A DNA stretch of 64,000 bases. It comes from a virus. Made by a program: the position numbers and the translations under genes. The notes under the pieces are model-generated. The model worked only from the letters and a program-made list of their open reading frames with translations. It was not told the origin of the DNA and searched no databases. This document shows, piece after piece, positions 177 through 58,152 of the stretch (positions within the stretch are counted from its first letter, which is position 1; each line of letters begins with the position of its first letter). The stretch is taken from positions 1-64,000 of the IMG/VR virus record IMGVR_UViG_3300011116_001125; one strand, written 5' to 3'.

Positions 177-1085
177 ATGGCTATTACTCGTTCCCAACTA
201 CTCAAAGAACTTGAGCCCGGACTCAATGCTCTTTTCGGCATGGAGTATGATCGCTACGACAACGAGCACACTGAAATTTTCGATACCGAATCTTCAGACC
301 GTGCTTTTGAAGAAGAAGTCATGCTCTCCGGCTTTGGTCAGGCTCCGGTCAAGGGCGAAGGCGCTGCCATCGCTTATGACACGGCAGGTGAAGCCTTCAC
401 AGCACGCTATACCCATGAAACAATCGCACTTGCGTTTGCTATCACGGAAGAAGCTGTGGAAGATAACCTGTACGACAAGTTGTCGAGCCGTTACACCCGT
501 GCGCTCGCACGTTCGATGTCCAACACCAAGCAGGTCAAGGCAGCGTCTGTTCTTAACAACGCTTTCTCTTCCTCTTATGTTGGCGGCGACGGCGTTTCGC
601 TCATCAACGCAAACCATCCGACGGTAGGTGGTGGTAACTGGTCAAATACGCTTGCAACGCAGGCTGACCTTAACGAAACTTCGCTCGAACAGGCTTTGAT
701 TGATATTGCAGCCTTCATCGACGAACGTGGCCTTAAGGTTGCTTTGCGCGGCATGAAGTTGATCATTCCGCCTGCATTGCAGTTTACTGCAGAGCGTATT
801 CTCAAGTCGGAACAGCGTGTTTCAACGGCGGATAACGATATCAATGCACTCAAGTCTGGTGGTTATATGCCACAGGGCTTTACGGTCAATCACTTCTTGA
901 CCGATCCGGATGCGTGGTTCGTTAAAACCGATGCGCCTAACGGCATGAAACACTTTGTCCGTAGCCCGATTAAAACGGCTATGGAAGGCGAATTTGAAAC
1001 AGGTAACGTGCGCTACAAGGCGCGTGAGCGTTACTCGTTCGGTTGGTCTGACCCGCGTGCCATGTATGGTTCGCAGGGCGCGTAA
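177..1085 (+). CDS. Major capsid protein
   Basis: 302 aa, MAITRSQLLKELEPGLNALFG... type capsid sequence. Follows scaffold and decoration genes, has a GGGGAG SD, and is followed by a terminator. Confidence 0.9.
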   Translation: MAITRSQLLKELEPGLNALFGMEYDRYDNEHTEIFDTESSDRAFEEEVMLSGFGQAPVKGEGAAIAYDTAGEAFTARYTHETIALAFAITEEAVEDNLYDKLSSRYTRALARSMSNTKQVKAASVLNNAFSSSYVGGDGVSLINANHPTVGGGNWSNTLATQADLNETSLEQALIDIAAFIDERGLKVALRGMKLIIPPALQFTAERILKSEQRVSTADNDINALKSGGYMPQGFTVNHFLTDPDAWFVKTDAPNGMKHFVRSPIKTAMEGEFETGNVRYKARERYSFGWSDPRAMYGSQGA

Positions 1086-1111
1086 TTGCTGCCTTTGAAC
1101 AGCAGTAATGG

Positions 1112-1139
1112 AAGAGCGGGCCTTGTGTCCGCTCTTTTT
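1112..1139 (+). terminator. Intrinsic terminator after MCP
   Basis: AAGAGCGGGC-cttgt-GTCCGCTCTT followed by a T-run; identical in copy B (59104-59131). Confidence 0.8.
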
Positions 1140-1200
1140 CTATTGTAACGTATGTTGTTCCTGACTGCTAAGCAGACAACCCCAACGACAGGAGACCTAC

Positions 1201-1680
1201 ATGGGGACGACAACCTTTTCCGGACCGATTAAAGCGGGTCCGATTAAATTCACCACAGGTACCACACTTGGTCAAGACGTTGCTGACGTAGGTAACGTTG
1301 TGCTTTCGCAATCGAGCGCACTTACGCAAGCCACCAATGCAGGCTCGGCAGGCGTTTACAGCACTGGAATCGTTATTCCAGCGGGTTGCACCATTACTTC
1401 TATTCAGATTTTTGTAACGACAGCATGGTCTGGCGCAGCACAAACAATCAATGTGGGCACAAACTCCACGGCAACGCAACTTGCCGTTGCGGCAGACAAT
1501 GATCTTTCCACAACGCTCGGAATTAAAAACATTGTTCCTGGAAGCGATGCAACACGCACTGGCAAGTGGATCGATGTTGGTACAACAGATATTCGTATCT
1601 GGACAAAATCAACCAACACGGGTACGGGTGTGGGTGTGATTGTTGTCAACTACATCCAAAACGGCGCTATTAGCCCCTAA
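1201..1680 (+). CDS. Virion structural protein (beta-rich, head-associated)
   Basis: 159 aa, T/G/V-rich, AGGAG SD, immediately after MCP, conserved in copy B. Confidence 0.65.
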   Translation: MGTTTFSGPIKAGPIKFTTGTTLGQDVADVGNVVLSQSSALTQATNAGSAGVYSTGIVIPAGCTITSIQIFVTTAWSGAAQTINVGTNSTATQLAVAADNDLSTTLGIKNIVPGSDATRTGKWIDVGTTDIRIWTKSTNTGTGVGVIVVNYIQNGAISP

Positions 1681-1696
1681 TACCTAGGAGGCTGAC

Positions 1697-2095
1697 ATGG
1701 CCGATGCGGTAACCACACAAACTATCTTCCAAGGCGATAAAACCCTTGTTATGAAGTTTACCAACATTTCAGATGGCACCGGAGAGTCCGGTGTCATCAA
1801 GGTAAACGTTGCTTCACTTGCTTCATACCAAGGTATGCCGTGTACTGCTGTCCAAATTGACAAGGTCTATGCCATGACGTATGGTATGGAAGTTAGACTT
1901 TATTGGGCAGCAACTAGCCCACAACTTATTATGACTATTCCACAAAACGTCATGAACACGCATAACTATGACGAGTTTGGGGGTATTGATAATAACGCAG
2001 GGGCGGGTAAAACGGGTAACATCACTTTTACAACGGCAGACGCCAGTGCAGGTGATATGTACACTATTATCCTTGTAATGCGTAAGCTGTATTAA
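1697..2095 (+). CDS. Putative virion structural protein
   Basis: 132 aa, AGGAGG SD, conserved in copy B. Confidence 0.65.
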   Translation: MADAVTTQTIFQGDKTLVMKFTNISDGTGESGVIKVNVASLASYQGMPCTAVQIDKVYAMTYGMEVRLYWAATSPQLIMTIPQNVMNTHNYDEFGGIDNNAGAGKTGNITFTTADASAGDMYTIILVMRKLY

Positions 2096-2106
2096 AAGAG
2101 ACGATA

Positions 2107-2895
2107 ATGACTCGACCCCCTTCCTCAGTAACTAGGACTGGTGCGTATGAGCCCTTTAACTTGCAGGTGGCACGGGGTCAAATTCCGTGGCACCAAAGTA
2201 TCGTTGTTTTTGGTTACAACTCTGACGTAGACACAAGTGTGGAAACTGTTTGGCCTTACGGCGGTATTCTTCCTTTTCCCAACAATGCTTTGCAGATGTC
2301 TGTTAGCTCAGATAACACTAACGACACAGCAGCAGGGACAGGCGCTAGAACCGTTTATATTCAAGGGCTGAACGCTAATCACGATACGATCAGCGAAACA
2401 GTTTCTTTAAATGGTCAGACTGCCGTACTTACGGCAAACTCTTATCTACACATAAATCAAGCCTATGTTGCAACCGCTGGGTCATTAAACAGCGCCGCAG
2501 GTAATATTTACTTTGGAACAGGCGCTTTAACTTTAGGCGTTCCAGCAACCGTTTATGATATCATTCAATACGACTATAACACCAGAGTTACTGGAAGTTA
2601 TACTATTCCATCTGGCTACACCGGATACTTAGAACAGGGCTTGTTTTCTTCTGGACAGGCTGGCGGTTCTAACGCTGTAACCGGACGTCTTATGACACGC
2701 GGTACGGATAATATTCGTAGGACAGCAGCGATTGTTACGCTAAATAATGGTGCTGCTGACTATGCGTTTGAGTATCCAGTTGTTATACCAGAAAAAACAA
2801 CTATTGAAGCTCAGGCCGTTGGCTCCTCAACAAACAACGCCTGCTCTAGCATGTTTATTATTGTTCTCATTAAAAATGACGCGGGGACTGCGTGA
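2107..2895 (+). CDS. Putative virion structural protein (beta-rich)
   Basis: 262 aa, conserved in copy B with mostly synonymous changes. Confidence 0.65.
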   Translation: MTRPPSSVTRTGAYEPFNLQVARGQIPWHQSIVVFGYNSDVDTSVETVWPYGGILPFPNNALQMSVSSDNTNDTAAGTGARTVYIQGLNANHDTISETVSLNGQTAVLTANSYLHINQAYVATAGSLNSAAGNIYFGTGALTLGVPATVYDIIQYDYNTRVTGSYTIPSGYTGYLEQGLFSSGQAGGSNAVTGRLMTRGTDNIRRTAAIVTLNNGAADYAFEYPVVIPEKTTIEAQAVGSSTNNACSSMFIIVLIKNDAGTA

Positions 2896-3179
2896 TGGCT
2901 AAGGGCATGGGCATAAAAACTTCGGTAAAATCAGGCAACTTTCGCCCCACAAAGGCAGGGGCGGGAATGACTGAAAAAGGCGTAAAAGCCTTCCGACGTG
3001 CCAATCCTGGATCAAAGTTAAGCACCGCAGTCACAGAAAAAAGTCCAACAGGAAAGCGCGCAGCACGTAAAAAATCGTTCTGTGCGCGTTCTGCTGGACA
3101 AATGAAAATGTTTCCTGAAGCTGCTAAAGACCCCAACAGCCGCCTTCGGCAAGCGCGTAAGCGTTGGAGGTGCAAATGA
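2892..3179 (+). CDS. Small basic phage protein (DUF6321-like)
   Basis: KSFCARSAGQMK...KDPNSRLRQARKRWRC motif. Confidence 0.6.
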   Translation: MMAKGMGIKTSVKSGNFRPTKAGAGMTEKGVKAFRRANPGSKLSTAVTEKSPTGKRAARKKSFCARSAGQMKMFPEAAKDPNSRLRQARKRWRCK

Positions 3180-3454
3180 TTATAGATCTGCAAATGCTTT
3201 GGAATGGCCTTTTAACTCTTGTGTTGCTCCCGCTTGCTTGGATACTCGTGTATTTAAACACACGCATTACTGAAGCGGAAGAAAAATCGGCAACAACGTT
3301 TGACCGTATTTGGAAATCAATAGCAGAACACCGCGAAGATATTCCAAAAACCTACGTTACTAAAACCGACCTGTTGAATACTCATAACCAAATCATGAGT
3401 CGCTTTGATCGGTTAGAAGAAAAAATCGACCGCATTACGGGGATAGGCAAATGA
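3164..3454 (+). CDS. Small membrane-anchored coiled-coil protein
   Basis: Hydrophobic N-terminus (LWNGLLTLVLLPLAWILVYL) and RFDRLEEKIDR tail; the start may be the ATG at 3176. Confidence 0.6.
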   Translation: MEVQMIIDLQMLWNGLLTLVLLPLAWILVYLNTRITEAEEKSATTFDRIWKSIAEHREDIPKTYVTKTDLLNTHNQIMSRFDRLEEKIDRITGIGK

Positions 3455-3621
3455 AAGTACGTGCTAAAAATTCATTGCCTGTTCCGCGTGGTTCAAAAAT
3501 ACGCACGCCTTCTTTCGGGCTTAAAAAGGGTGGTGCTTTGGGTAAAACTAAAAAGCCCAAAGTTGGTATCGCGATTATGATCGCTGTTGGTAAGCCTAGA
3601 AAAGGAATGCGCAATGGTTAA
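3451..3621 (+). CDS. 56-aa Lys/Gly-rich protein (below the ORF-track cutoff)
   Basis: Hand-translated MKVRAKNSLPVPRGSK...GLKKGGALGK...RKGMRNG*; ATGA overlap with the upstream gene; conserved in copy B. Confidence 0.7.
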   Translation: MKVRAKNSLPVPRGSKIRTPSFGLKKGGALGKTKKPKVGIAIMIAVGKPRKGMRNG

Positions 3622-4048
3622 GAAAATTTCTGAGTATGGCGGCATGGAAAAGTACTCTTCCAAAAAAGCTATGGGTAAACACGAAGGTAAAGAATCTTCA
3701 CGTGCAGAAGCAGGAGAAAAGTCAATGGCTATGAAGAAACGCGGCGGGGGCATGGCTACCCGTGGTATGGGTGCTGCTCTTAAAAAGGGGGGCAAGGTCA
3801 TGAAAAAAGCTATGGGGGGTGGTGTTAATACCCGTAATCCACCTGCACTTGGTAAACTTCCTATAAGACCCGTTCCTCGGGAACTTTATACTGGTGGTTC
3901 TAAAAATTTTGATGAATCCACAGGTACTTATCGTGGTCGTCCCGGTGGTGGCATGAATTACATTGGTGGTTCTAAAAAATTTGATGAAAGTGTAGGCCCT
4001 CGCAGAATGAAAAAAGGCGGCATGGCTAAAGGTCGTAAGGGCTGCTAA
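3614..4048 (+). CDS. Basic Gly/Lys/Met-rich protein with multiple xxxGG motifs
   Basis: ATG 3614 after AAAGGA; KKRGGG, LKKGG and MKKGG motifs. Confidence 0.7.
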   Translation: MVKKISEYGGMEKYSSKKAMGKHEGKESSRAEAGEKSMAMKKRGGGMATRGMGAALKKGGKVMKKAMGGGVNTRNPPALGKLPIRPVPRELYTGGSKNFDESTGTYRGRPGGGMNYIGGSKKFDESVGPRRMKKGGMAKGRKGC

Positions 4049-4050
4049 CG

Positions 4051-4209
4051 ATGAAAAAAGAGGTTTGGGCCAAGCCACGTCCTAAAGGGTTGGGTAAGCC
4101 CAAGCCTCTTACTTCTAAGCAGAAAAGTTCTGCTAAAAAAGCGGCTAAGGCTGCGGGTCGGCCTTATCCTAATCTTGTAGACAATATGCGTGCTGCGAGG
4201 AAAAAATGA
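4051..4209 (+). CDS. 52-aa basic protein
   Basis: Hand-translated MKKEVWAKPRPKGLGKPK...AGRPYPNLVDNMRAARKK*; conserved in copy B. Confidence 0.7.
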   Translation: MKKEVWAKPRPKGLGKPKPLTSKQKSSAKKAAKAAGRPYPNLVDNMRAARKK

Positions 4210-4385
4210 AAAAGCCTACTAAAGCGCAAGCTAAAATTCGTACGGTGCTGCATGAGTTTAAGGTAGGTAAACTTCACTCGGGCAGCAAAAAAGGTCCAAC
4301 AGTTAAAAGTCGCCAACAGGCGATCGCTATTGCTCTTTCGCAAGCAGGTAAGTCGATGAGCAAAGCAAAGCGCAGGAGTAAGTAA
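4206..4385 (+). CDS. 59-aa basic protein, DUF6496-like
   Basis: HEFKVGKLHSGSKKGPTVKSRQQAIAIALSQA motif; conserved in copy B. Confidence 0.65.
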   Translation: MKKPTKAQAKIRTVLHEFKVGKLHSGSKKGPTVKSRQQAIAIALSQAGKSMSKAKRRSK

Positions 4386-4386
4386 G

Positions 4387-5001
4387 ATGCCAAATACAAT
4401 GATGGGTTATGGTGGAGTTCAACCCCAACGCGCAGCCACTCCCGCTATGCCTATTCGGCAAGATTATGCAGGCCCCCTGCCTCAAGGTGGTGGCGGTCTT
4501 GGTAGAGGTGTTCCTCTTCCGCCAAAATTAGGTGGAGGCATGAATTACATCGGTGGCTCTCCCAATTTTGATGAAAGCCTTGGCGCATATCGTAACCCAC
4601 TAAAACCAATGCCTGATGGCGGGTTTATGATTCCCGGTCCGAATGATTTTAGCATGGGTCCAGGAGGTGCGATGACTAGGTATACTCCACCCGCACCCCC
4701 CACGCTTGGAATTACCCCTATCCGTGGTCCTTATGATGTACCTCCAACGTTTGGGGTTACTCCTACTCAAACGCCTGACCAAATGCAGGCTTTGCGTAAT
4801 GCTCATCTTGCGCAACAACAAGCGCAGTTGTTGATGGCGCAGCAACAAGCGCAACTATCTGCTCCTTTGGCCTATCGTCAAGCTGTGGCGCAACAACAGT
4901 ACATCCCGCCTAATGCAGGCATCGCTGCCTTGCCTATGAACCCTGCAATGATGCAACGTTTAGGTACTATCGCAAGCCTTGCAGGCGGAGTACGCAGATG
5001 A
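4387..5001 (+). CDS. Pro/Gln/Gly-rich low-complexity protein (hypervariable)
   Basis: 204 aa; only the termini are conserved in the copy B allele (62380-63246). Confidence 0.7.
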   Translation: MPNTMMGYGGVQPQRAATPAMPIRQDYAGPLPQGGGGLGRGVPLPPKLGGGMNYIGGSPNFDESLGAYRNPLKPMPDGGFMIPGPNDFSMGPGGAMTRYTPPAPPTLGITPIRGPYDVPPTFGVTPTQTPDQMQALRNAHLAQQQAQLLMAQQQAQLSAPLAYRQAVAQQQYIPPNAGIAALPMNPAMMQRLGTIASLAGGVRR

Positions 5002-5354
5002 AAAAACCTGTAAAGCGCCGCAAGTATGCTGACGGTGGGGATGTGCAAAATCCTGCCGCACCCCCTATCGGCACAACAGATCTTTCTGGTGCAGGGGCAC
5101 AAGCGCAAAACCAAGCGCAGCCGCCTTCTAGTCCGGGTCCGGGACAAACCTCTCCGTATTATTCGCCTTCAGACTATGGTACACCTGTCGGCGCGATGAA
5201 TACGCAGGGCAGTAGTTTGTACGTTCAAGACCGTATGTCAGGCCAAGGTGCAACGGCGCAGGGCTACGCAAAAGGCGGCATGGTCAACAAACGTGGTAAA
5301 GTTCGTGGTTGCGGGGTGGCTAAACGTGGGCTCACAAAAGGCAAGGTGTACTGA
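4998..5354 (+). CDS. Small virion-type protein with YADGG/YAKGG and RGCG tail
   Basis: 118 aa, conserved in copy B. Confidence 0.7.
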   Translation: MKKPVKRRKYADGGDVQNPAAPPIGTTDLSGAGAQAQNQAQPPSSPGPGQTSPYYSPSDYGTPVGAMNTQGSSLYVQDRMSGQGATAQGYAKGGMVNKRGKVRGCGVAKRGLTKGKVY

Positions 5355-5356
5355 TC

Positions 5357-5632
5357 ATGATAAAGCGTAAGAAAAAGTATGACCTACCTGTGCCACAATA
5401 CGATACTCCTTCCGGAGAAGAACAATATAAGAAAATACTAGAAGAAAATGCAAAGGCTTTGGATAAAACCAAAAGCACAGGTGATGTTACTTCTGAAGAG
5501 GAAGAAACGTTGCGTGAGACCATGCGTAAACAGGTTGAGGAAAGCAAGTACAAGCGCGGCGGCATGGTAAAGAGCAAAGCGCGTGGTTGCGGCGTAGCTG
5601 TTCGTGGCTTGACCAAAGGCAGGATGTATTGA
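5357..5632 (+). CDS. Small protein with YKRGG...RGCG tail (paralogous tail to 4998-5354)
   Basis: C-terminus GGMVKSKARGCGVAVRGLTKGRMY. Confidence 0.7.
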   Translation: MIKRKKKYDLPVPQYDTPSGEEQYKKILEENAKALDKTKSTGDVTSEEEETLRETMRKQVEESKYKRGGMVKSKARGCGVAVRGLTKGRMY

Positions 5633-5633
5633 T

Positions 5634-5906
5634 ATGGCAAAAGGTTCTGCTTCACCTACAGGGTTAATGAATATTGGTATGTGGGAAGATTCTCCTGCTG
5701 ATATTCGTGGGGATACCGCTATCAAAAAGCGTATGGGCAAGCAGGGCGTGTCAAAAGAAGCCTATGAAAGTTCTGCTGAAGACATCAAGCATGACATTCA
5801 AAAGTCTTCAAAAGGTATCGGTATGAAACGCGGTGGCGCGGTATACATGCCTTCTGAAAGCAAGGGTAAAAGCCGTAAACATACGCGGGGTTGCAAAATC
5901 TGCTGA
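5634..5906 (+). CDS. Small basic protein with MKRGG motif
   Basis: 90 aa; 5' part conserved at 63882-64000. Confidence 0.65.
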   Translation: MAKGSASPTGLMNIGMWEDSPADIRGDTAIKKRMGKQGVSKEAYESSAEDIKHDIQKSSKGIGMKRGGAVYMPSESKGKSRKHTRGCKIC

Positions 5907-6592
5907 TGGCTTATTCAGGCACAAAAACATTTGAACTCGACGTAGCCGAATATATCGAAGAGGCTTACGAGCGGTGCGGTATTGAAGTTCGTACAGGTTA
6001 CGATCAACGTACTGCACGCCGGAGTTTAAATCTTTTGTTGGCAGAATGGGCCAACCGTGGGCTCAACCAGTGGACGATTAAGCAACAAAGCATTACGATG
6101 ACGGTAGGTGTCAATGAGTACCCATTGGAAGCCTACGACATTGACGTTTTGGATGCTGTTTGCCGTTTTGCTCAAGGTGTTGATACTCAAAATCAACAAG
6201 ATCTAACAGTTGACCGTATCAGCCGTGAAGTTTATTTGGATATTCCTGCCAAGTTGCGGCGTGCGCGTCCTGTGCAGTATTTTGTAGATAGGCAAATAAC
6301 GCCCATCATCAAAGTATGGCCTACGCCAGATCAAACGTATTATTTGGTTATCAATAAACTTGTTCGGCTTGATGATGTGAATAGCTCTACTAATACGCTG
6401 CAACTGCCGTTTAGATTTTATCCTTGTTTGGCGGCAGGCTTGGCCTATTATATTTCTTTGAAAAAAGCACCTGAGCGCACACAAATGCTTAAGGCTATTT
6501 ACGAAGAAGAGTTTGATAAAGCCGCCGCTGAAGACCGTGATCGCGCTTCCTTGATGCTTACCCCCATGAGAAATTATTATGGTGTGGTGTAA
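5906..6592 (+). CDS. Head-tail adaptor / tail tubular protein A-like
   Basis: ARRSLNLLLAEWANRGLNQW motif typical of podovirus adaptors; TGATG coupling at 5906. Confidence 0.65.
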   Translation: MAYSGTKTFELDVAEYIEEAYERCGIEVRTGYDQRTARRSLNLLLAEWANRGLNQWTIKQQSITMTVGVNEYPLEAYDIDVLDAVCRFAQGVDTQNQQDLTVDRISREVYLDIPAKLRRARPVQYFVDRQITPIIKVWPTPDQTYYLVINKLVRLDDVNSSTNTLQLPFRFYPCLAAGLAYYISLKKAPERTQMLKAIYEEEFDKAAAEDRDRASLMLTPMRNYYGVV

Positions 6593-6594
6593 GT

Positions 6595-6900
6595 ATGACG
6601 AAATTTGCAAATGGTACTCAGTCCAAAGCTATCTGCGATAGGTGCGGGTTTAAGTACTATTACCTCCAATTAAAAAAGGAGTGGACAGGGTTTAGAACCT
6701 GTATGGAGTGCTGGGAACCTAAGCACCCACAGCTAGACCCTATCTATCCCCCTACTGAGCCGCAGGCTTTGTATCAACCGCGACCTGATGTTATTATCAA
6801 TTACGATGCACCTGTGGCGGATGAAGTGTTTCCATTTTTGCCAATTAGTCTGTTACAGGGCATTACTCAAATTGGTATAGTGACTGTGGAGATTACATAA
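6595..6900 (+). CDS. Conserved phage protein with two CxxC motifs
   Basis: CDRC...CMEC, KHPQLDP. Confidence 0.6.
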   Translation: MTKFANGTQSKAICDRCGFKYYYLQLKKEWTGFRTCMECWEPKHPQLDPIYPPTEPQALYQPRPDVIINYDAPVADEVFPFLPISLLQGITQIGIVTVEIT

Positions 6901-7538
6901 TGGGTTGGACCTATACCACTCTCACAACAGCAATCAAGGACTTTGTTCAGTCGTCTGAAACAACGTTCAATAACAATTTGAACGTTTTTATTCAAAACGC
7001 GGAAGAACGCATCTTTTTCTCGGTTAGTTTGGAATATTTTCGTAAGAACCAAACAGGTAACCTAACTTCGGGTAATCAATATCTAGCAAAGCCTTCTGAT
7101 TTTATGTCGGCCTATGCCTTATCGGTTACTGTTAGTGGTGAAAAAGTGTTCCTTTTGAATAAGGATGTTGAGTATCTACAAACTTATGATCCCACTGGTG
7201 CAACGGGTTCACCTAAGTATTACGGGTATTTTGACATTAACAACTTCATTATTGCCCCTGTTCCGGACAGTAACTATGCTGTTGAAATCCATTATTACTA
7301 CCGTCCAGAAAGCCTTGTGACACAAACAAGTGGTACATGGATTAGTAACAATGCGCAGCAAGCTCTGCTTTACGGCAGCTTGGTAGAGGCATATACCTTT
7401 CTTAAGGGCGAGCCTGATTTGTTAAACCTATACAATCAACGGTTTGTAGAATCGCTCACTCGCTTGAAAAACTTCGGTGAGGGTCTTGAAAACGTTGACG
7501 CTTACCGTGATGGTCTTGTTAGAGTTAAGGCTAACTAA
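6900..7538 (+). CDS. Second adaptor / head-closure-like virion protein
   Basis: FIQNAEERI...PKYY...LLYGSLVEAYTFLKG pattern; tail-module position. Confidence 0.6.
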   Translation: MGWTYTTLTTAIKDFVQSSETTFNNNLNVFIQNAEERIFFSVSLEYFRKNQTGNLTSGNQYLAKPSDFMSAYALSVTVSGEKVFLLNKDVEYLQTYDPTGATGSPKYYGYFDINNFIIAPVPDSNYAVEIHYYYRPESLVTQTSGTWISNNAQQALLYGSLVEAYTFLKGEPDLLNLYNQRFVESLTRLKNFGEGLENVDAYRDGLVRVKAN

Positions 7539-7828
7539 TGTTTACACAAGCACTCAATACGGGCACTTTTAAAGTAGATGTAATGACTTCTAGTAATGGA
7601 GGTCACCCGCCTGAGTTTTGGGCAAAACGTGCGGCAGACCATATTGTAAAAGTTGCCGAAACTGCCCATCCCGCTATTCGCGATCAGGCTTTGGCCTTTC
7701 GAGATCAGGTAGAACACGTTATACTTCATCACATGAAACAAGCTATTTCGTGTGATCGGACCACGGTGGGCTCATACGTAGAAGAGGCAGGCCATCCTAA
7801 ACTGGCTGAACTTATAAGGAGGCCGTAA
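7538..7828 (+). CDS. Conserved hypothetical phage protein
   Basis: 96 aa, translationally coupled on both sides. Confidence 0.6.
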   Translation: MFTQALNTGTFKVDVMTSSNGGHPPEFWAKRAADHIVKVAETAHPAIRDQALAFRDQVEHVILHHMKQAISCDRTTVGSYVEEAGHPKLAELIRRP

Positions 7829-8286
7829 TGGCGTTTACTGGTAACTATATGACAACGTCGTTCAAGCTCGACCTCTTGAACGGTAAGCAGGCCCTTGGTA
7901 CAACGGTTATTCGTGCTACAACAACAGCCGATACATATAAGATCGCGTTGTATACATCTTCTGCAACTCTTGGCGCAGCAACTACTGCGTACAGCGCGAC
8001 TAACGAAATTACTAATACCTCAGGCACAGCATATATAGCGGGTGGTCAAACGCTCACGGGCGCTACAACTACATCTTCAGGCACAACAGCCTATGCTGAT
8101 TTTGCAGATGCTTCATGGTCCTCTGCTTCATTTACTGCCCGTGGTGCGTTGATCTATAACTCAACGCAGTCAAATAGCTCAGTGGTAGTGCTTGATTTCG
8201 GTTCCGATAAAACGGCTTCCGCAGGTACTTTTACGGTTGTGTTCCCTACCAATGATGCTTCAAATGCTATCATAAGGATTGCTTAA
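7828..8286 (+). CDS. Tail-associated structural protein
   Basis: YKIALYTSSATLGAATTAYS...ARGALIYN...VLDFGSDK. Confidence 0.65.
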   Translation: MAFTGNYMTTSFKLDLLNGKQALGTTVIRATTTADTYKIALYTSSATLGAATTAYSATNEITNTSGTAYIAGGQTLTGATTTSSGTTAYADFADASWSSASFTARGALIYNSTQSNSSVVVLDFGSDKTASAGTFTVVFPTNDASNAIIRIA

Positions 8287-8318
8287 TCCTTACTATTTTA
8301 ATGCGAAAGGTAGCATAA

Positions 8319-9287
8319 ATGGCTGATGCTATTGTCGCATTTCAAGGTTGGAATAGGTCACAAGGTTGGGGGCTCGGGCCTTTTGGCACGGGCTCCATTG
8401 ATATTGGCGTCGCAACAGGGGCTGTAGGAACTGTTAGCGTTCAGGGTGACGCTGTAGCTTCGGTAACAGGTGTATTTTCTACAGGCCAAGTTGGTACCGT
8501 AGACGTTTACTTAAACACATCTATTGACCTCACAGGTGTAGTGGCTACAGGTCAAGTTGGCGATATTACAGTTGTTGGTAACGCTATTGCGGATACCACA
8601 GGCGTTGCCGCTACAGGTCAAGTTGGCAGTGTTTCGATTGTTGTCGATGTAAATGTCGACGTTACGGGCATAGCTGCTATTGGTCAGGTTGGCACTGTAG
8701 ATATTTATCTATCGCCTAATGTTGCCGTAACAGGGGTAGAAGCTACAGGCCAAGTTGGCAATGTTACTGTTGCTCTTTCCGCTAATGTTTCTGTAACTGG
8801 ATTAGAAGCTACAGGCCAAGTTGGCGATGTTACTGTTAGTGGCAACGCAGTAGTTGATGTTGCGGGGTTATCTGCAACAGGTGAAGTTGGAACTGTAGAA
8901 GTTCAACTTTCGCCTAATGTAAGCGTTACTGGTGTATCTGCTACGGGTGAAATTGGCACCGTTTCGGTTGTGCTTGTTACAAATGTTTTTGTAACGGGTG
9001 TAGAAGCAACGGCTACGGTAGGCAGTGTTACTGTTTCACTTTCGCCTAACGCCTACGTTATAGGGGTAGAAGCCACTGGTTATGTAGGAACTGTCACCGT
9101 TTGGGGGCAAATTGTGCCGAGCCAAAACCCCGATTGGAATACCTTTGTTCCAGTAGATGTGCCCGCTTGGGCGGCTATGACCCCTGCAAATACACCAAAT
9201 TGGATACCGATTGCGCCTTCGGATGATCCAAGCTATACTCCGATCAACCCATCCCAAACGCCAAACTGGGAGCAGATAGCTGCGTAA
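8319..9287 (+). CDS. Repetitive beta-strand tail/fibre-associated protein
   Basis: Many tandem ~23-aa VTGVxATGQVGxVxV units; Pro/Trp-rich C-terminus. Confidence 0.65.
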   Translation: MADAIVAFQGWNRSQGWGLGPFGTGSIDIGVATGAVGTVSVQGDAVASVTGVFSTGQVGTVDVYLNTSIDLTGVVATGQVGDITVVGNAIADTTGVAATGQVGSVSIVVDVNVDVTGIAAIGQVGTVDIYLSPNVAVTGVEATGQVGNVTVALSANVSVTGLEATGQVGDVTVSGNAVVDVAGLSATGEVGTVEVQLSPNVSVTGVSATGEIGTVSVVLVTNVFVTGVEATATVGSVTVSLSPNAYVIGVEATGYVGTVTVWGQIVPSQNPDWNTFVPVDVPAWAAMTPANTPNWIPIAPSDDPSYTPINPSQTPNWEQIAA

Positions 9288-9296
9288 AGGTGAAGC

Positions 9297-11483
9297 ATGG
9301 CAAGTACATATTCTGCTAATTTAAAACTTAATTTGATGGGTACGGGCGATCAGTCCGGCACATGGGGTGATACGACCAATACGAATTTAGGAACACTGCT
9401 CGAGCAGGCTATTGCGGGGTATACTACGCAGGCGCTCGCAGGTGCAGGCCCTACTGCATTAACTATTCCAGATGGTGCAACTGGTATCGGACGGTATTAC
9501 GTTATTGAGTTTACGGGCACTCCTACAGCAGGCCATCAGGTAACTGTTCCAGCGGTTCAAAAACCCTATATTTTCTACAATAATACCAATATCGCGGTTA
9601 CGGTCAAAGTAAGTGGTCAAACTGGTGTTACGATTGCCGTTGGTAAAAAAGCTATCGTATACAACAACGGCACTGATATTATTGAAGTTGCAAATGCTCC
9701 AGTAACGGAAGCAGGCACGCAAACCCTCACGAATAAAACGCTCACAAGCCCTACGCTTACGGCACCCGTATTAGGTACGCCTGCTTCTGGCACGCTTACT
9801 AACGCTACGGGCCTGCCTTTGACTACGGGTGTAACGGGCACTCTGCCCGTAGCTAATGGTGGAACGGGCATTACTTCGTTTGGTTCTGGTATCGCAACTT
9901 GGCTAGGCACCCCATCTAGCGCGAACCTTTTATCTGCTATGACAGATGAAACGGGTACGGGCCTACTGGTTTTTGCTACTTCACCATCGCTTACAACGCC
10001 TGCCCTTTCCGGTGAAACGTTTAGCACCTCGGCTACGGTTACGGCAGGAACAAACGCACAAGGGCAAGGCGCATTAACAAGCGATTATAATGTTATCACA
10101 ACGGCGGCTTCTAATCCTTCTGGTGTAACACTTCCTACTGCTACTACGGGTAGACGCATTGTTATTGTTAATAAGGGTGCAAATTCTGTAAACGTGTACC
10201 CTGCTACTGGCGCTGCGATTGATGCCTTGGCTGCAAACGCTTCTATTGCGTTGCCAGTTAGCGGCGTGATGATTTTTAACGCTTCTTCTACTACACAATG
10301 GTATTCTACTTATAATCTTACTCTTGCGGCTGCGGGGGTTACTTCTTTTAGTGCAGGTACCACAGGCTTTACGCCTTCAACCGCTACTACTGGTGCAGTT
10401 ACTCTTGCCGGAACATTAGGTACTGCAAATGGTGGCACAGGATTAACAACTTTTACGGCTGCCAATAATGCAATTTATTCTACATCTGCTTCTGCCGTTA
10501 CAGCAGGAACATTACCTGTTTTGGCGGGTGGAACAGGCGTAACAACAAGTACGGGCACAGGTTCCAATGTGCTTTCAACTTCTCCTGTTTTAACCACCCC
10601 TAATCTGGGCACGCCTTCTGCTGCAACGCTTACCAATGCTACAGGCTTACCCCTCACAACAGGGGTTACAGGCACCCTTCCTGTTGCAAATGGCGGGACA
10701 GGGGCAGCTACTCTTACTGCAAATAACGTATTGCTTGGTAACGGCACAAGTGCGCTACAGGTTGTTGCTCCTGGGACTAATGGTAATGTTCTTACTAGCA
10801 ATGGCACTACTTGGACAAGTTCTGCTCCTTCGTCTACTGGTCGACTTATCCGTGCGCCACAAATCCTGACATCTGGCACTTCATACACCACGCCTTCTAA
10901 CTGCACTGCGATCTACGTTGAACTTTGGGGTGCTGGTGGATCGGGTGGTCGTGGTAACTCTGGAAGCGGCGGCGGGGGCAGCGGTGCTTATTGCGCCAAG
11001 TATGCAACTGTTACTGGAAGCACGGCGTATACAATTGCGATTGGCTCTGGTGGTGCAGCTCCTACATCAAACAGTCAGAATGGTAACACTGGCGGTAGCA
11101 CCACCATTACTATTGGTGCAACGACCTATACAGCAGGCGGCGGTGGTGGTGGAAACGGTAACGCAGCAGATACTGGTGGAAGTGGTGGAACGGCTACAAA
11201 CGGGGATATAAACATCTCTGGACAACAAGGCGGTTTTTCTAAAAACGCTGGAACAGTAAATTTGCCACGCCCAGAACCTTGGGGCCAGTATTCAGGGGCT
11301 TCTGGAACAACATTTAGTGGTAATGGCGGCTCCACAGTTGGCCCCCTTGCTTGCCCAAGTGGAGGGCGCGCTGACGCCAGTGGCGCACCTACATTTTACG
11401 GTGCTGGATCAGGCGGCGTTGCGGCATCAGTAACGGCAAATGCTGGCTTTCAAGGTCTAATCCGTATCTGGGAGTACACATAA
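9297..11483 (+). CDS. Tail fibre protein
   Basis: 728 aa, T/G/A-rich; N-terminal GDQSGTWGDTTNTN; repeated GTLPVANGGTG; Gly-rich C-terminal domain. Confidence 0.8.
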   Translation: MASTYSANLKLNLMGTGDQSGTWGDTTNTNLGTLLEQAIAGYTTQALAGAGPTALTIPDGATGIGRYYVIEFTGTPTAGHQVTVPAVQKPYIFYNNTNIAVTVKVSGQTGVTIAVGKKAIVYNNGTDIIEVANAPVTEAGTQTLTNKTLTSPTLTAPVLGTPASGTLTNATGLPLTTGVTGTLPVANGGTGITSFGSGIATWLGTPSSANLLSAMTDETGTGLLVFATSPSLTTPALSGETFSTSATVTAGTNAQGQGALTSDYNVITTAASNPSGVTLPTATTGRRIVIVNKGANSVNVYPATGAAIDALAANASIALPVSGVMIFNASSTTQWYSTYNLTLAAAGVTSFSAGTTGFTPSTATTGAVTLAGTLGTANGGTGLTTFTAANNAIYSTSASAVTAGTLPVLAGGTGVTTSTGTGSNVLSTSPVLTTPNLGTPSAATLTNATGLPLTTGVTGTLPVANGGTGAATLTANNVLLGNGTSALQVVAPGTNGNVLTSNGTTWTSSAPSSTGRLIRAPQILTSGTSYTTPSNCTAIYVELWGAGGSGGRGNSGSGGGGSGAYCAKYATVTGSTAYTIAIGSGGAAPTSNSQNGNTGGSTTITIGATTYTAGGGGGGNGNAADTGGSGGTATNGDINISGQQGGFSKNAGTVNLPRPEPWGQYSGASGTTFSGNGGSTVGPLACPSGGRADASGAPTFYGAGSGGVAASVTANAGFQGLIRIWEYT

Positions 11484-11671
11484 TGCGTTGTGCTTTATTC
11501 CAAAACAGCAATAATACCGTCATCAATATCATCGTAGCTGATCCGGCAACGGACCCCACGCCAGAAGGTTGCACCATTGTAGGTCTTCCTGATGATTCAC
11601 CTGTTTCATTTGGTTGGATTTATAATCCCGCCACAGGACAATTTACTGATCCCAATCCGCCCCCTTCGTAA
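11483..11671 (+). CDS. Small tail-fibre-associated (chaperone-like) protein
   Basis: 62 aa, VINIIVAD...GWIYNPATGQFTDP; coupled to the fibre gene. Confidence 0.55.
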   Translation: MRCALFQNSNNTVINIIVADPATDPTPEGCTIVGLPDDSPVSFGWIYNPATGQFTDPNPPPS

Positions 11672-11681
11672 GGGTTAAAAT

Positions 11682-13556: not shown

Positions 13557-13852
13557 TGGATGTAAGGCTTGTTTTACCCGCCTTTCAAATAGCGCCTAAA
13601 GAATACAGCCAAGGCTATTTGAACAACTTGGTGAATATGCTCAACATTGCTTTTACGGCAATGCGTTCTCCTGGAGAAGGTAGGCAATCTACGTTGGTAA
13701 TCACCAATATGCCTTCAGATGGGTACAATTTAGAAACAGGAACGTTGTTTCAAATAAACGGGGTGGTATACGTTTCAACTTTAAACAGGGCGTATACTTA
13801 TGGACTTTCCGCTACAGGGGCAGTAGGCACCGTAACTGTAAGCATTGTTTAG
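13556..13852 (+). CDS. Hypothetical tail-associated protein
   Basis: 98 aa; ends in GLSATGAVGTVTV, like the 8319 repeat unit. Confidence 0.55.
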   Translation: MDVRLVLPAFQIAPKEYSQGYLNNLVNMLNIAFTAMRSPGEGRQSTLVITNMPSDGYNLETGTLFQINGVVYVSTLNRAYTYGLSATGAVGTVTVSIV

Positions 13853-15412: not shown

Positions 15413-15415
15413 TAA

Positions 15416-44582: not shown

Positions 44583-45185
44583 GTGAGTAATGGTAACGTC
44601 TTTATTGACATTTACAAAAACAATCGTTGGGAAGACGGCGGCTCGGGTATCGGGTCGGCGGTGACGTATAGCCGTAAGTACATTGATTACGTCAAACCCC
44701 TGATAAAAGGGAAAAAGGTACTCGACCTCGGGTGCGGCGATTTTAGAATTGGTGCAGAGTTGCATGCAGAGGCCGCTGAATACGTAGCCGTAGACGTAGT
44801 GAGTGGGTTGTTCACTGTTCCTGACGAAGTAAAATTCATTGTGGCAGATTTTTCTGCGCAGGGGGTTATCGGGCAAGTGTTCATGGCCCATGGACCTTTT
44901 GATGTTGTTTTGTTGAAAGACGTGCTGATGCACTGGTCCGACGAAGAGATCAAACCCTTCGCACAGGAGCTCGCCACTCTGCCTTGGAAAACGCTACTTG
45001 TGGCGAACAAGTACAAATACGTCCGCAAGCCGGAGTACAACGGTCGCCCACGCAACCCCAGAGCAAACAAGTATAGCATGAGTCCATTACCCTGCGACCA
45101 CGAAAGCCTTGCCGCACTCCAGCTGAAACCCGTGCTCTACTACCCATCCGTATCGTGCGTACAACTCGCGCGGCAGGATAAATAG
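44583..45185 (+). CDS. Class I SAM-dependent methyltransferase (small-molecule/glycan type)
   Basis: GSGIGS, VLDLGCGDF motif I, YVAVDV, FDVVLLKDVLMHW. Confidence 0.8.
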   Translation: MSNGNVFIDIYKNNRWEDGGSGIGSAVTYSRKYIDYVKPLIKGKKVLDLGCGDFRIGAELHAEAAEYVAVDVVSGLFTVPDEVKFIVADFSAQGVIGQVFMAHGPFDVVLLKDVLMHWSDEEIKPFAQELATLPWKTLLVANKYKYVRKPEYNGRPRNPRANKYSMSPLPCDHESLAALQLKPVLYYPSVSCVQLARQDK

Positions 45186-46974: not shown

Positions 46975-47151
46975 TGGCTCTTCGCGCACGGTCATCGTCG
47001 CATCTTCCTCTGCTCATGTATCATGGTCCTCGTCTGATCGGATCGTCGTCTCGTCTTACTTTTCGTCAGGTGATCTTACTCATCGGCAGGTCGTCTGACC
47101 AGGTCTCTTGAGCTATGCACCAGACGCAGGTCAGCTATGCGTTTTTGTGGA

Positions 47152-55680: not shown

Positions 55681-56143
55681 ACTCGTCCTGCCTGAGCATC
55701 TTGTAGAAAAACTGAATGCTCCTCCAAAAGAAGAAACGTCGGCGCTAGAAAGTGCCTATGTCGCACCTGAAAAAGTAGTTCTTGATCCTAGCAAAATTGA
55801 AGCAAGCGTTCTTGAACGTATGCCACAACCTTCGGGTTGGCGGCTTTTGATCCTGCCCTACAAAGGATCAGCAAAAACTAAGGGTAACGTATTTCTTCCT
55901 GAAGAATATGTTGAACGTCAATCACTCGCTACAGTTGTGGCGTATGTGCTTGCTGTTGGCCCCGATGCCTATAAGGACCAAGCAAAATTCCCTAATGGCC
56001 CGTGGTGCAAGAAGGGTGATTGGGTAATGATTGGTCGTTATGCAGGCGCACGTTTCCGCATAGAAGGCGGCGAAGTGCGTATTATCAACGATGACGAAGT
56101 TATCGCAACAATCATTGAACCGTCAGATGTTCTGACGCTTTGA
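55673..56143 (+). CDS. groES: Phage co-chaperonin GroES (Cpn10)
   Basis: PSGWRLLI...KTKGNVFLP...VLAVGP...KGDWV...YAG...IINDDEVIATI. Confidence 0.85.
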   Translation: MSKLVLPEHLVEKLNAPPKEETSALESAYVAPEKVVLDPSKIEASVLERMPQPSGWRLLILPYKGSAKTKGNVFLPEEYVERQSLATVVAYVLAVGPDAYKDQAKFPNGPWCKKGDWVMIGRYAGARFRIEGGEVRIINDDEVIATIIEPSDVLTL

Positions 56144-56158
56144 TGCAGGAGTAATACC

Positions 56159-57070
56159 ATGTCAGAAGAAAAAGTATCTGCACCTGAAGAAGATGTAGTA
56201 GAGGTAGAAGTTACCGACGATGGTAAAGAAACCAAAGCGGTAATTGTTGAAGCAAAGCCAGAACCCGAACCTGCAAAACCTTCATCAGAAGAAGATGAAT
56301 TAGCGGGTTATAGTGAAGGCGTCAAACGGCGTATTGAAAAACTTACGTTTAAAATGCGTGAGGCTGAGCGCCGTGAGCAAGCTGCACTGGAATACGCTAA
56401 GAGTGTAAAAAGCCAAATGGATGTAGCCAATTTGCGTACTGCGCAGATTGACCTCACACTAAGCAGTGAAGCTGAAAATCGTGTTAAACTACAAGAGCAG
56501 TTAATCAAAGATCGGTTACGCACTGCTATTGACCGTGGCGATATCGATGGTCAAGTACAAGCACAACGTGATCTAGCAGAACTTGCTGTAGAAAATGATC
56601 GTGTACGGGCTAACCGCGCACGTAGCGAAGCAGCAGGCCAAGAAATTTATCGTCAGGCTGTTAACCCGCAACCGCAGGTTCAACAGGTGCAACAACCCGC
56701 ACCACGTAGGCCCGACCCCAAGGCAGAAACTTGGGCAGAGAAAAATACTTGGTTTGGCGCAGATGAACCTATGACAATTACGGCCTTTAGCCACCACAAA
56801 AGCCTTGTGGAGCGTGAAGGTTTTGACCCCACCAGTGATGATTACTATGAGGAACTGGACAGACGTATGCGCAAAGATTTTCCGCATAAGTTTCAACCAA
56901 GCCGTGCCCCTTCCCAAGCTGTTGGGTCAGCACGGTCTTCAGCACGTCCAGAAAACAGCTCACGTATTCGTCTAACACCTAGCCAAGTAGCTATTGCCAA
57001 GAAACTCGGCATTAGTGTAGAACAGTATGCACGGCAGGTGAAACTCCTTGGAGAGAGCAATGATCGATAA
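56159..57070 (+). CDS. Capsid scaffolding protein
   Basis: Acidic N-terminus, coiled coil, LTPSQVAIAKKLGIS C-terminus; precedes the capsid genes. Confidence 0.7.
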   Translation: MSEEKVSAPEEDVVEVEVTDDGKETKAVIVEAKPEPEPAKPSSEEDELAGYSEGVKRRIEKLTFKMREAERREQAALEYAKSVKSQMDVANLRTAQIDLTLSSEAENRVKLQEQLIKDRLRTAIDRGDIDGQVQAQRDLAELAVENDRVRANRARSEAAGQEIYRQAVNPQPQVQQVQQPAPRRPDPKAETWAEKNTWFGADEPMTITAFSHHKSLVEREGFDPTSDDYYEELDRRMRKDFPHKFQPSRAPSQAVGSARSSARPENSSRIRLTPSQVAIAKKLGISVEQYARQVKLLGESNDR

Positions 57071-57518
57071 GACTTCTCGTTCTACGGGCACCCGTGCCGC
57101 CACTTCACGTGTCACTACGTGGAAACCCCCGTCCTCTTTGGACGCACCTCCCCCGCCGGAGGGTTATGTACACCGTTGGATTCGTGTAGAATCGTCTGGT
57201 GTTGATGATCGGAAAAACCTATCCGCTAGACTTCGCGAAGGATTTGAACTCGTTCGCGCCGAGGAATACCCTGACTTTGAAGCACCTACAGTCCAGGATG
57301 GTCGCCATGCTGGAGTGATTGGTGTAGGGGGCTTGGTACTCGCTCGTATTCCTGTTGAAATTGTTGCCCAACGTCGGGCTTATTACAATAAGCAAACGAG
57401 CGAACAGCTCAGTGCTGTTGATAATGACTTGATGCGGGAACAACATCCTTCAATGCCGATTATTAAACCTGAACGGCAATCTCGAGTCACTTTTGGCGGA
57501 AATCGTTCCGCCGAATAA
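57060..57518 (+). CDS. Conserved head-module protein
   Basis: WKPPSSLDAPPPPEGYVHRWIR; GGAGAG SD. Confidence 0.65.
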   Translation: MIDKTSRSTGTRAATSRVTTWKPPSSLDAPPPPEGYVHRWIRVESSGVDDRKNLSARLREGFELVRAEEYPDFEAPTVQDGRHAGVIGVGGLVLARIPVEIVAQRRAYYNKQTSEQLSAVDNDLMREQHPSMPIIKPERQSRVTFGGNRSAE

Positions 57519-57534
57519 CCAAAGGATCTAAGCA

Positions 57535-58152
57535 ATGGCAAACATCAATGCCGCGTTCGGACTTCGTCCGTACAACATGCTTGGAAGCGGTGCTAACACC
57601 AACGGCGATTCTGTATTCGTTATTCAATCAGCGGATACGGCAGGTACGTCTAGCGCGATTTATAACGGCTCGCCCGTTATTCCGCTCGCTAACGGCTTGA
57701 TCGACATCGTCGGCGCAGCAGCGGGTGGTACAGTTCCGATTCTGGGCGTTTTCATTGGCTGCAATTACATTGACCTTACGGGTAAACCCCGTTGGTCGCC
57801 ATATTGGCCTGGAACTGCTTCGGTTAAGGCAAACACTGTTGCTACGGCAATGGTTGTTGCTAATCCGGATGCAGTATTCACGATCAATTGTGACGCAGCC
57901 GCAGCAGATAGCCTTATTCATGCTAACGCAAACTTCTCGACGGCAACGTCGGGCAGCACTACGTCGGGCCAGTCCTCGGCGCAGCTTGCAGTTAGCACAG
58001 CGAATACGACTAATACGCTGAATCTCCGCATCCTCGGTTTTGAAGACATTCCTAGCAGCAATGATGCTACTGTGGCAGGTCGCAACGCTATCGTGATGCT
58101 TAACAACCACTTCTACCGTTACTGTGCCAACGGCACAGGCGCGGGCGTGTAA
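57535..58152 (+). CDS. Capsid decoration/minor capsid protein
   Basis: MANINAAFGLRP...GVFIGCNY; directly upstream of MCP. Confidence 0.7.
   Translation: MANINAAFGLRPYNMLGSGANTNGDSVFVIQSADTAGTSSAIYNGSPVIPLANGLIDIVGAAAGGTVPILGVFIGCNYIDLTGKPRWSPYWPGTASVKANTVATAMVVANPDAVFTINCDAAAADSLIHANANFSTATSGSTTSGQSSAQLAVSTANTTNTLNLRILGFEDIPSSNDATVAGRNAIVMLNNHFYRYCANGTGAGV

Follow-up and report, generated by a model that had tools for sequence, protein, structure and literature searches.

We describe here a stretch of 64,000 nucleotides (hereafter, the window) that makes up the first 64 kb of a single 75,636-bp IMG/VR virus record, IMGVR_UViG_3300011116_001125. The focus is on a predicted thymine hypermodification cassette that is encoded in this phage DNA and centers on a homologue of 5-hydroxymethyl-dU (5-hmdU) DNA kinases, and on the survival of the restriction sites CCGG and CCWGG, which are retained almost exclusively where they are overlapped by a TC dinucleotide step.

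Genome units and the predicted modification cassette

The window encompasses one complete genome and the beginning of a second, diverged copy. Unit A is a complete 57,991-bp genome, circular or circularly permuted, because separately assembled contigs of the two candidate source samples run across position 57991 directly into A's own start; all 25 listed differences that were checked in these junction-crossing contigs agree with A. The diverged repeat, unit B, begins at 57992 and spans 57992-75636 of the contig, that is, 17.6 kb after the full genome A. It is 78-98% identical to A 1-16052, and variant B is present in a sister sample; the join between the two units is most likely a two-strain assembly concatemer. 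All statistics given below were obtained for unit A unless a different scope is named, and unit B was used as a semi-independent replicate.

The GC content is 47.4%, and nearly all genes are on the + strand. By the large terminase, the closest named relatives are the Pelagibacter phages HTVC027P (66%) and HTVC023P and the phages 023Pt_psg01 and DSL-LC04; a megablast search of a 5-kb segment against named phages yielded no match. The sequence occurs in assembled contigs of freshwater, estuary, aquatic and viral metagenome runs.

Between the helicase gene and the PolA gene lies a cassette that is recognized as an insert of about 6 kb because, in the relatives that lack the kinase, the helicase gene directly abuts PolA. 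The cassette encodes a DUF932 protein, a 212-aa protein, the kinase homologue, a radical SAM (rSAM)/SPASM enzyme, a 320-aa protein and a thymidylate synthase (TS) homologue, and is directly followed by the polymerase and deoxynucleotidase genes. The units and genes are as follows:

1 to 57991, no strand assigned: unit A, the complete phage genome (circular or circularly permuted) in which the footprint was measured
57992 to 64000, no strand assigned: start of unit B, the diverged second copy
29486 to 30517, + strand: DUF932 protein at the 5' edge of the cassette (PF06067, E 2.6e-47)
30526 to 31164, + strand: 212-aa cassette protein, weakly conserved beside the kinase in relatives
31166 to 32020, + strand: 5-hmdU DNA kinase homologue (PF18723 HMUDK_hel, E 1.7e-49, match to the whole protein)
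32022 to 33020, + strand: radical SAM/SPASM enzyme, variable tailoring step (PF04055 and PF13186)
33017 to 33979, + strand: candidate GT-B glycosyltransferase, 320 aa, variable tailoring step (structure prediction)
33976 to 34986, + strand: TS homologue, predicted dUMP hydroxymethylase (PF00303, E 4.9e-24)
35377 to 37314, + strand: family A DNA polymerase (PF00476, E 5e-57)
37295 to 37819, + strand: HD/YfbR-like 5'-deoxynucleotidase (PF12917, E 5e-16)

In a tblastn search, the kinase homologue showed 35.6% identity (E 2e-41) to the locus 38462-39370 of phage M6, which is adjoined by the M6 rSAM, PLP and TS genes; M6 gp54 is a biochemically validated 5-hmdU DNA kinase (PMC8989533). The best solved relative of the TS homologue is the CMP hydroxymethylase MilA. 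The base-specifying residue, however, is an Asn that aligns with the PFN Asn of thymidylate synthases, in contrast to the Asp of MilA. The role of this Asn/Asp residue in the choice of the base is established for the TS family, and the homologue thus appears to be of the uracil type, a predicted dUMP hydroxymethylase.

The 320-aa protein showed no Pfam match even at E <= 5, and its assignment comes from other lines of comparison. The ESM feature score to the GT1/GT4 clusters is 0.98, and the top PDB matches of the AF2 model (pLDDT 92) in a Foldseek search are all GT-B proteins (SenB, 4e-11; HepE), with the T4 DNA alpha-glucosyltransferase among the PDB matches as well (3.5e-9). The presence of this gene probably implies a bulky, sugar-bearing adduct. 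The 212-aa protein belongs to no family in Pfam or PHROGs, and none of the cassette proteins matched an aGPT-Pplase/DADT group transferase in either database. Searches of the six frames of the contig at E <= 1 yielded no match to DpdA/TGT (PF01702), with the positive controls found, and none to the DNA methyltransferase families PF00145 and PF01555; Pfam scans of the remaining larger open reading frames revealed no further DNA-modifying enzyme. Outside the cassette, 44583-45185 encodes a small class I methyltransferase-like protein with weak Pfam matches that are below the cut-offs for most families, and near the cassette, 34964-35278 and 37857-38318 encode small proteins with weak matches to pyrimidine-dimer DNA glycosylase (T4 endoV-like).

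Flank-dependent survival of CCGG and CCWGG

The original prediction, made from the letters by eye, was that restriction palindromes in this DNA survive almost only when overlapped by a 5'-TC step, with CCGG and CCWGG as the principal cases and with GCCGGC, ACCGGT and GCCWGGC missing. A recount bears this out: the site coordinates reported at the time are all correct, the three extended sites are present in 0 copies each, and, in the window, 79 of the 81 CCGG sites and 33 of the 34 CCWGG sites (29 of these in the form TCCWGGA) are flanked, that is, preceded by T or followed by A.

As the null model for unit A, we used 300 synonymous-codon shuffles within each gene, which preserve both the proteins and the codon usage. 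Flanked CCGG sites are found at the expected level (61 of the 63 sites; 62.1 ± 6.3 flanked sites expected), whereas the unflanked ones are nearly gone, with 2 observed vs 98.4 ± 8.4 expected and a minimum of 77 in the null. CCGG is the most depleted 4-mer palindrome, with an observed to expected ratio (O/E) of 0.37. Among the CCWGG sites, 29 of 30 are flanked, with 1 unflanked site vs 43.7 ± 5.6 expected, and the doubly flanked TCCWGGA is found 26 times vs 3.0 ± 1.8 expected, with a maximum of 10 in the null. The bias survives both the Markov and the codon-shuffle corrections, with flanked sites at expectation and unflanked sites depleted approximately 50-fold; the flank-dependent pattern is thereby confirmed as genuine and far beyond chance. 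The exceptions, along with one example of the doubly flanked arrangement from the list of CCWGG sites, are these:

3940 to 3945, + strand: TCCCGG, an 'unflanked' CCGG whose TC step is shifted outward by one base (the other copy is at 4632-4637)
47098 to 47105, no strand assigned: A-CCAGG-TC, the only unflanked CCWGG, intergenic, with TC following on both strands
1536 to 1542, + strand: doubly flanked TCCWGGA in the form NNT-CCT-GGA (X-Pro-Gly)

Thus, both unflanked CCGG sites of unit A (3942 and 4634) are parts of TCCCGG, and at the CCWGG exception at 47099, the base pair at position -1 still bears a T in the TC context. Unit B (57992-75636) shows 36 of 38 CCGG and 5 of 5 CCWGG sites flanked, and the tallies for its homologous parts are 24/24 and 6/6, respectively. 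We considered and rejected the possibility that the non-homologous segment of unit B (66975-71224) is a fresh, unshielded import: 6 of its 8 CCGG sites are still flanked, and TC is low. No dependence on the flank was seen for CGCG, CATG and CTAG, the palindromes used as controls, of which 40-44% are flanked. In an unbiased scan of all words that start with C, the strongest dependence on a preceding T was found for CCGGC, CCTGG, CCGGT, CCAGG and CCGGG; for CCGGC, 23 copies preceded by T were found vs 21.8 expected, and with any other base before the word, 0 copies vs 81.

To define the context and direction of the effect, the pooled purged sites were scored under the codon-shuffle null, with the CCWGG values taken from the 300-shuffle analysis. 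For C-starting sites with the T/A flank, such that the C of the TC step is inside the site, the O/E is ~0.85, vs ~0.03 for unflanked sites. For G-starting palindromes, a flanking T (TG context) has no effect (O/E of 0.12 both with and without the flank), and for A...T palindromes followed by C, where the T of the TC step is the last base of the site, the O/E is 0.21 vs 0.08 for the unflanked copies. Because palindromes that start with G are not rescued by a preceding T, protection is linked to the TC rather than the TG context, and its effect is on the base pairs located 3' of the T. Palindromes that contain T in the TG, TT or CT contexts are fully purged (AAGCTT, 0 vs 33; ATGCAT, 0 vs 21; TGGCCA, 0 vs 24), and ten TC-free 6-mer palindromes are present in 0 copies, with 7-33 expected. 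At position -2, there is no base preference, and no motif longer than N-T-C was detected. TC/GA is the rarest dinucleotide (rho 0.69/0.77), and TC steps contain about 18% of the T, both strands counted.

The original prediction extended the bias to three 6-mer palindromes. The CTGCAG sites at 787, 17459, 21720, 37025, 46794 and 52539 are indeed all flanked, as is the one at 58778 in the second copy, and unflanked CTGCAG in unit A amounts to 0 vs 12.9 ± 3.4 expected under the codon shuffle. Of the 11 CCATGG sites, all but the one at 45297 are flanked (unflanked, 1 vs 7.5 ± 2.2), and CAGCTG shows the same bias (unflanked, 0 vs 11.8 ± 3.4 expected). That prediction also named GGCC, GCGC and GGTACC as sites without depletion, which holds roughly, given 284 GCGC vs 244 expected (slightly high) and 15 GGTACC vs 19, except that GGCC is mildly low (187 vs 219 ± 10).

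The footprint extends to the choice of codons. Pro-Gly always encodes CCNGG and, therefore, the site cannot be removed by synonymous changes, with both flanks being free third positions. Nearly all TCCWGGA sites are in codon phase 0 (NNT-CCW-GGA). GGA, the rarest Gly codon (187/1512), is used in 38 of the 44 Pro-Gly pairs (p 1e-28). A preceding T is combined with GGA in 25 of the 28 CCW-GGN pairs. The choice of GGA and of the T flank is due to selection on DNA, not on the protein, and TCCWGGA is enriched, rather than merely tolerated, because the flanks are selected at the unavoidable Pro-Gly sites. Neither this enrichment nor the lack of protection in the TG context was noted in the original prediction.

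Several observations on the distribution of TC steps and related words accompany the footprint. TCTC/GAGA is avoided beyond what the scarcity of TC predicts: the O/E is 0.40 in unit A, 0.40-0.73 in the clade of kinase-bearing phages and 0.46 in M6, vs 0.92-0.98 in the relatives without the kinase. TCCC is likewise low in unit A, and closely spaced modified T's may be disfavored. The non-palindromic CCAGC/GCTGG is depleted as well, with O/E of 0.22 in unit A and 0.01-0.03 in L004-L008 (related kinase-bearing contigs, see below), compared to 0.95-2.0 in relatives without the kinase; the CCAGC copies that survive in unit A and in L001-L003 are mostly preceded by T (17/28), and a restriction system with an asymmetric recognition site may be directed at this word. 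Finally, one region differs sharply from the rest of the genome:

46801 to 47400, + strand: TC-rich island between terS and terL, with 56-58 TC+GA steps per 300 nt vs a genome mean of 27 ± 5.7

The steps in this island are strongly skewed to TC on the + strand, and the island includes the sole unflanked CCWGG (47099); possibly, it is a densely modified region involved in packaging or located at a genome end.

The footprint and the kinase in related phages

Sixteen viral contigs (L001-L016) encode a related kinase. The footprint is present in 13 of these loci, namely, twelve with 54-98% kinase identity and L015 with 33%, across a GC range of 38-48% and in lineages from both marine and freshwater samples; L016 has a partial footprint, and the other two are discussed below. 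In the L009-L012 lineage, CGCG is also rare and T-flanked.

The whole records of HTVC027P, 023Pt_psg01, DSL-LC04 and HTVC023P contain no match to PF18723. In these four phages, the CCGG flanks are random (19/40, 30/59, 90/240 and 5/22 flanked, respectively), the CCGG O/E is 0.8-1.5, TC is normal (rho 0.92-1.0), and 6-mer palindromes are hardly avoided (O/E of 0.90-0.99, vs 0.47-0.69 in the kinase clade). When pooled, flanked CCGG accounts for 47/50 sites in kinase-bearing phages vs 144/361 in kinase-less ones (Fisher p 3e-14), and flanked CCWGG for 62/62 vs 192/403 (Fisher p 1e-18). Across 80 relatives identified by the terminase, the footprint has a bimodal distribution.

Complete genomes allow a closer comparison, with the footprint present in one that encodes the kinase and lacking in three that do not, apart from a partial effect on CCGG in one of the kinase-less genomes. 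G001 encodes the kinase (67% identical), GT-B and TS, and its CCGG O/E is 0.87 for flanked vs 0.09 for unflanked sites, with 14 of 15 CCWGG sites flanked, 12 of them doubly. In G003, which lacks the kinase, the respective CCGG values are 1.04 and 0.89, and CCWGG is depleted whatever the flank (0.22 vs 0.35). The expectation that relatives without modification genes lack the bias is thus borne out by the four named phages and G003, all with random CCGG flanks. Another kinase-less genome, G007 (L108-L110), retains a single CCWGG in 54.6 kb, where ~131 are expected (O/E 0.02/0.00). Because the kinase-less G003 and G007 lose CCWGG irrespective of the flank, the restriction pressure on CCWGG is common to the group, and rescue of the site by the T/A flank is limited to phages that encode the kinase.

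The kinase, TS homologue, DUF932, PolA and HD genes are conserved across the footprint-bearing relatives. DUF932 is encoded in G001 and in those of the kinase-bearing contigs L001-L011 that include the respective region. It was undetected in G003, in G007 and in three of the four named relatives without the kinase; in L019, the sole match is 31% identical and located at a different place in the genome. The genes between the kinase and TS, in contrast, vary: rSAM and GT-B in unit A and L003; GT-B alone in L001, L002 and G001; rSAM and another gene in L009, L010 and L012; and unrelated genes in L004-L008 and L011. Among the relatives examined, rSAM is encoded only in L003, L009, L010, L012, L013 and L016. 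Such variability of the tailoring genes implies that several final adducts would be built on one kinase/TS scaffold. The TC rule holds whatever the tailoring chemistry and, therefore, points to the kinase as the determinant; judging from this gene content, the kinase most likely sets the TC context.

Other sites are avoided in individual relatives. L018 (023Pt_psg01, MW574966.1 1-50000), which lacks the kinase, contains zero CATG in 50 kb, vs ~120-130 in L017 and L020, which have a similar GC content, so that this 4-mer is purged completely; L014 has no TTAA in 13.9 kb; and none of the GGCC sites of L005-L012 has a G in front of it (0/120 half-sites), such that GGGCC/GGCCC is fully avoided.

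Probable shielding by a modified TC step and the alternatives

We consider it likely, with a probability of roughly 70%, that TC-specific hypermodification of T shields restriction sites in this phage. Under this scenario, the phage would replace thymine via the 5-hmdU pathway and, after replication, only T followed by C (5'-TC-3') would be hypermodified, with the kinase most likely setting the specificity. The rSAM enzyme and the GT-B glycosyltransferase would then build a bulky, probably sugar-bearing adduct that would block host enzymes at recognition sites that begin with the C:G pair directly 3' of the modified T. Type II restriction by the hosts of these phages would be a strong selective pressure. 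Sites beyond the reach of the shield, that is, G/C-only palindromes and those with T in the TG or TT contexts along with unflanked CCGG and CCWGG, would be removed synonymously, and protein-imposed sites, with Pro-Gly as the clearest case, would be kept and armored by a T-ending upstream codon and the GGA codon for Gly. One flank would be enough for CCGG, and both would be needed for CCWGG.

The shielding interpretation put forward in the original prediction is supported by these comparisons, although its proposal that T is the target divides into two parts: the TC context stands, and the choice of T rather than C rests on gene content. T is taken to be the modified base because of the presence of the kinase homologue, the uracil-type Asn of the TS homologue, and the failure of the six-frame searches to find a methyltransferase or TGT/DpdA. 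We infer likewise the chemistry, the part of the kinase in setting the context, and host cleavage as the selective agent.

Several findings weigh against this scenario. The proposed modified T lies outside the CCGG/CCWGG recognition sequence. Palindromes of the A...T type in which the terminal T is in the TC context gain little rescue, for which a modified C:G pair is the simpler fit unless the side chain on T points 3'. The footprint is absent in L013 and L014, the kinases of which are 36-40% identical, and conversely, the kinase-less G007 shows a partial flank effect on CCGG (flanked O/E of 1.17 vs unflanked 0.37). No recognizable T-modification genes were found in G007; its CCGG bias could be a relic, the result of another modification, or the work of host enzymes with extended specificity. 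In unit B, CTGCAG is flanked in only 3 of 7 cases, which weakens this part of the pattern, and few CAGCTG and CCATGG sites are available for counting, so that all three 6-mers are statistically thin. A general sparing of 6-mer palindromes with an internal TC was examined and rejected: it holds in unit A (0.87 vs 0.48), unit B, L005-L008 and G001, but fails in L001-L003 (0.45 vs 0.58), L004 and L009-L012, and is a weak observation only. Furthermore, phage M6, in which T hypermodification has been validated, shows no comparable purge (CCGG O/E of 0.95). In M6, which is reported to modify TG, T before GCGC, GTAC and GATC is mildly enriched (1.3-1.6 vs 0.5-1.1 for the other bases); this signal is too weak to validate the footprint method, and M6 was dropped as a positive control.

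Of the competing explanations, the one that survives best, itself unlikely, places the protecting group on the C:G pair of the TC:GA step (the C of TC or the G of GA) and invokes an unrecognized enzyme, with the thymine cassette being incidental or responsible for the context only. Sites that begin with the C of the TC step are fully rescued and those that include only its T are rescued weakly, both CCGG exceptions are TCCCGG, and the cassette and early genes encode several proteins without a functional assignment, all of which fits such a modification. A 3'-pointing side chain on T is reportedly known from aminoalkyl-dU studies, and the sequence data fit either a modified C:G pair or a T with such a side chain alike. 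Gene content argues for T: the six frames contain no TGT/DpdA and no C5- or N4/N6-methyltransferase, the TS homologue has the Asn of the uracil type and not the Asp of the cytosine type, and the footprint co-varies with the 5-hmdU kinase. In addition, the single ACCAGGTC exception retains a TC-context T, not C, beside the site.

A different possibility, which we find quite improbable, is a mutational purge, whereby host methyltransferases methylate unshielded CCGG and CCWGG and the resulting 5-methylcytosine deaminates, with the modified T blocking the methyltransferase rather than a nuclease. This scenario requires the same TC-specific modification and results in the same flank rule, and CCGG and CCWGG are classic, well-known sites of C5-methylation. 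However, the deamination products CCAG/CTGG are depleted rather than enriched, the retention of Pro-Gly sites with altered synonymous flanks requires selection on the flanks, and many palindromes that are not of the methylation type are purged as well.

The pattern might also arise with no shielding at all, if several host restriction systems (for example, those recognizing RCCGGY, GCCGGC and CCCGGG) jointly removed all CCGG flanks other than a preceding T or a following A. The partial depletion of unflanked CCGG together with the absence of GCCGGC in G007, and the purge of many 6-bp palindromes across the clade, agree with this view, which nevertheless appears very improbable. Nine flank classes would have to go, leaving exactly the seven TC-containing ones at the expected frequency, and the same rule would have to apply to CCWGG, to CGCG in L009-L012, and to CCAGC in unit A and L001-L003. 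Moreover, the enrichment of TCCWGGA and of GGA after Pro is unobtainable by avoidance alone, and kinase-less relatives lose CCWGG whatever the flank. Least probable of all is a selective agent encoded by the phage clade itself, such as a nuclease that degrades host DNA at CCGG/CCWGG, so that the phage would need to shield its own DNA or keep it devoid of these sites. All kinase-bearing lineages, over the full range of GC content and in both types of habitat, have purged the same two sites, but no candidate nuclease is conserved with the cassette, the purge of CCWGG in kinase-less G003 and G007 demonstrates pressure without the cassette, and the other purged palindromes vary by lineage, as expected of host systems.

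TC-specific shielding by hypermodified T can be placed among known systems, and by its gene content, the present phage appears to be of the kinase-based T-hypermodification kind, with a different inferred context and tailoring set. It shares with M6 (5-NedU), ViI (5-NeOmdU), PhiW-14 (putT) and 15599 (alpha-dapT) a TS homologue, a polymerase of its own, a 5-hmdU kinase and tailoring enzymes. These systems cause partial, sequence-specific substitution of T and protect against Type II enzymes including CCWGG cutters (PMC5889632, PMC8989533, PMC6449724, PMC13458397). In 2018, 5-hmdU was described as converted 'in a sequence-specific fashion', with the motifs 'not yet known' (PMC5889632). Restriction mapping suggested TG/TC for M6, ViI and PhiW-14, with a flanking T (tGCCGGC) possibly aiding resistance, and the kinase was proposed as the determinant of the context of T-hypermodification (PMC6449724). 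In the Acinetobacter phage 15599, restriction mapping located alpha-dapT mainly in TG, less in TC and rarely in TT/TA, and the modified fraction equals the TG fraction (2026, PMC13458397). Thus, the known kinase systems are either TG-dominant (15599, PhiW-14) or 'TG/TC' (M6, ViI), whereas here TC shields and TG does not. In contrast to the M6-type systems, the cassette combines a GT-B glycosyltransferase with an rSAM/SPASM enzyme and includes no recognized aGPT-Pplase/DADT. A further difference is that the present case is built on an evolutionary footprint and not on chemistry.

The pattern also resembles the avoidance of restriction sites in phages, with its strong depletion of 4-6 bp palindromes and differences between close relatives according to the host. 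Unlike in ordinary avoidance, the depletion here is conditional on the flank, flanked copies are at or above expectation, and the pattern co-occurs with the cassette. Overlapping Dam or Dcm modification blocks the cleavage of the correctly flanked subset of restriction sites. In that case, the methylated base is inside the site, whereas here the modified T would be at position -1, and the genome would have evolved to exploit the shield. The 7-deazaguanine (preQ0/dG+) systems of CAjan and 9g are likewise partial, motif-specific and protective (PMC7544227, PMC6884629). They differ from the present case in that DpdA/TGT is absent from this contig and no queuosine-pathway genes were seen. One of the CAjan motifs is said to be GA, the complement of TC. 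We did not find a comparable genome-wide evolutionary footprint described in the literature.

Taken as a whole, it appears reasonably probable that a widespread, uncultured aquatic phage clade possesses a kinase specific for TC, not TG, that its adducts shield even T-free sites, CCGG among them, from outside, and that the genomes have co-evolved with the modification, with T-CCW-GGA at Pro-Gly. The motifs of T-hypermodification are difficult to determine and have so far been inferred from restriction panels on cultured phages, and sequencers read such bases poorly (PMC13458397, PMC6449724). If our reading is correct, the genome sequence of an uncultured virus suffices to identify a hypermodification motif; the footprint test is applicable to any metagenomic phage genome, and its extension to all kinase-bearing phages would map kinase clades to dinucleotide specificities. 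The reading makes a falsifiable prediction, namely, that T in TC, ~18% of all T, is modified. It would point to the conserved kinase, not the variable tailoring genes, as the specificity component, and kinases with defined dinucleotide specificity would be candidate tools for site-selective derivatization of DNA. For the biology of these phages, it would provide natural evidence that a modified base can guard an adjacent recognition site that contains no T, and would show two anti-restriction strategies, site avoidance and DNA modification, joined at codon resolution.

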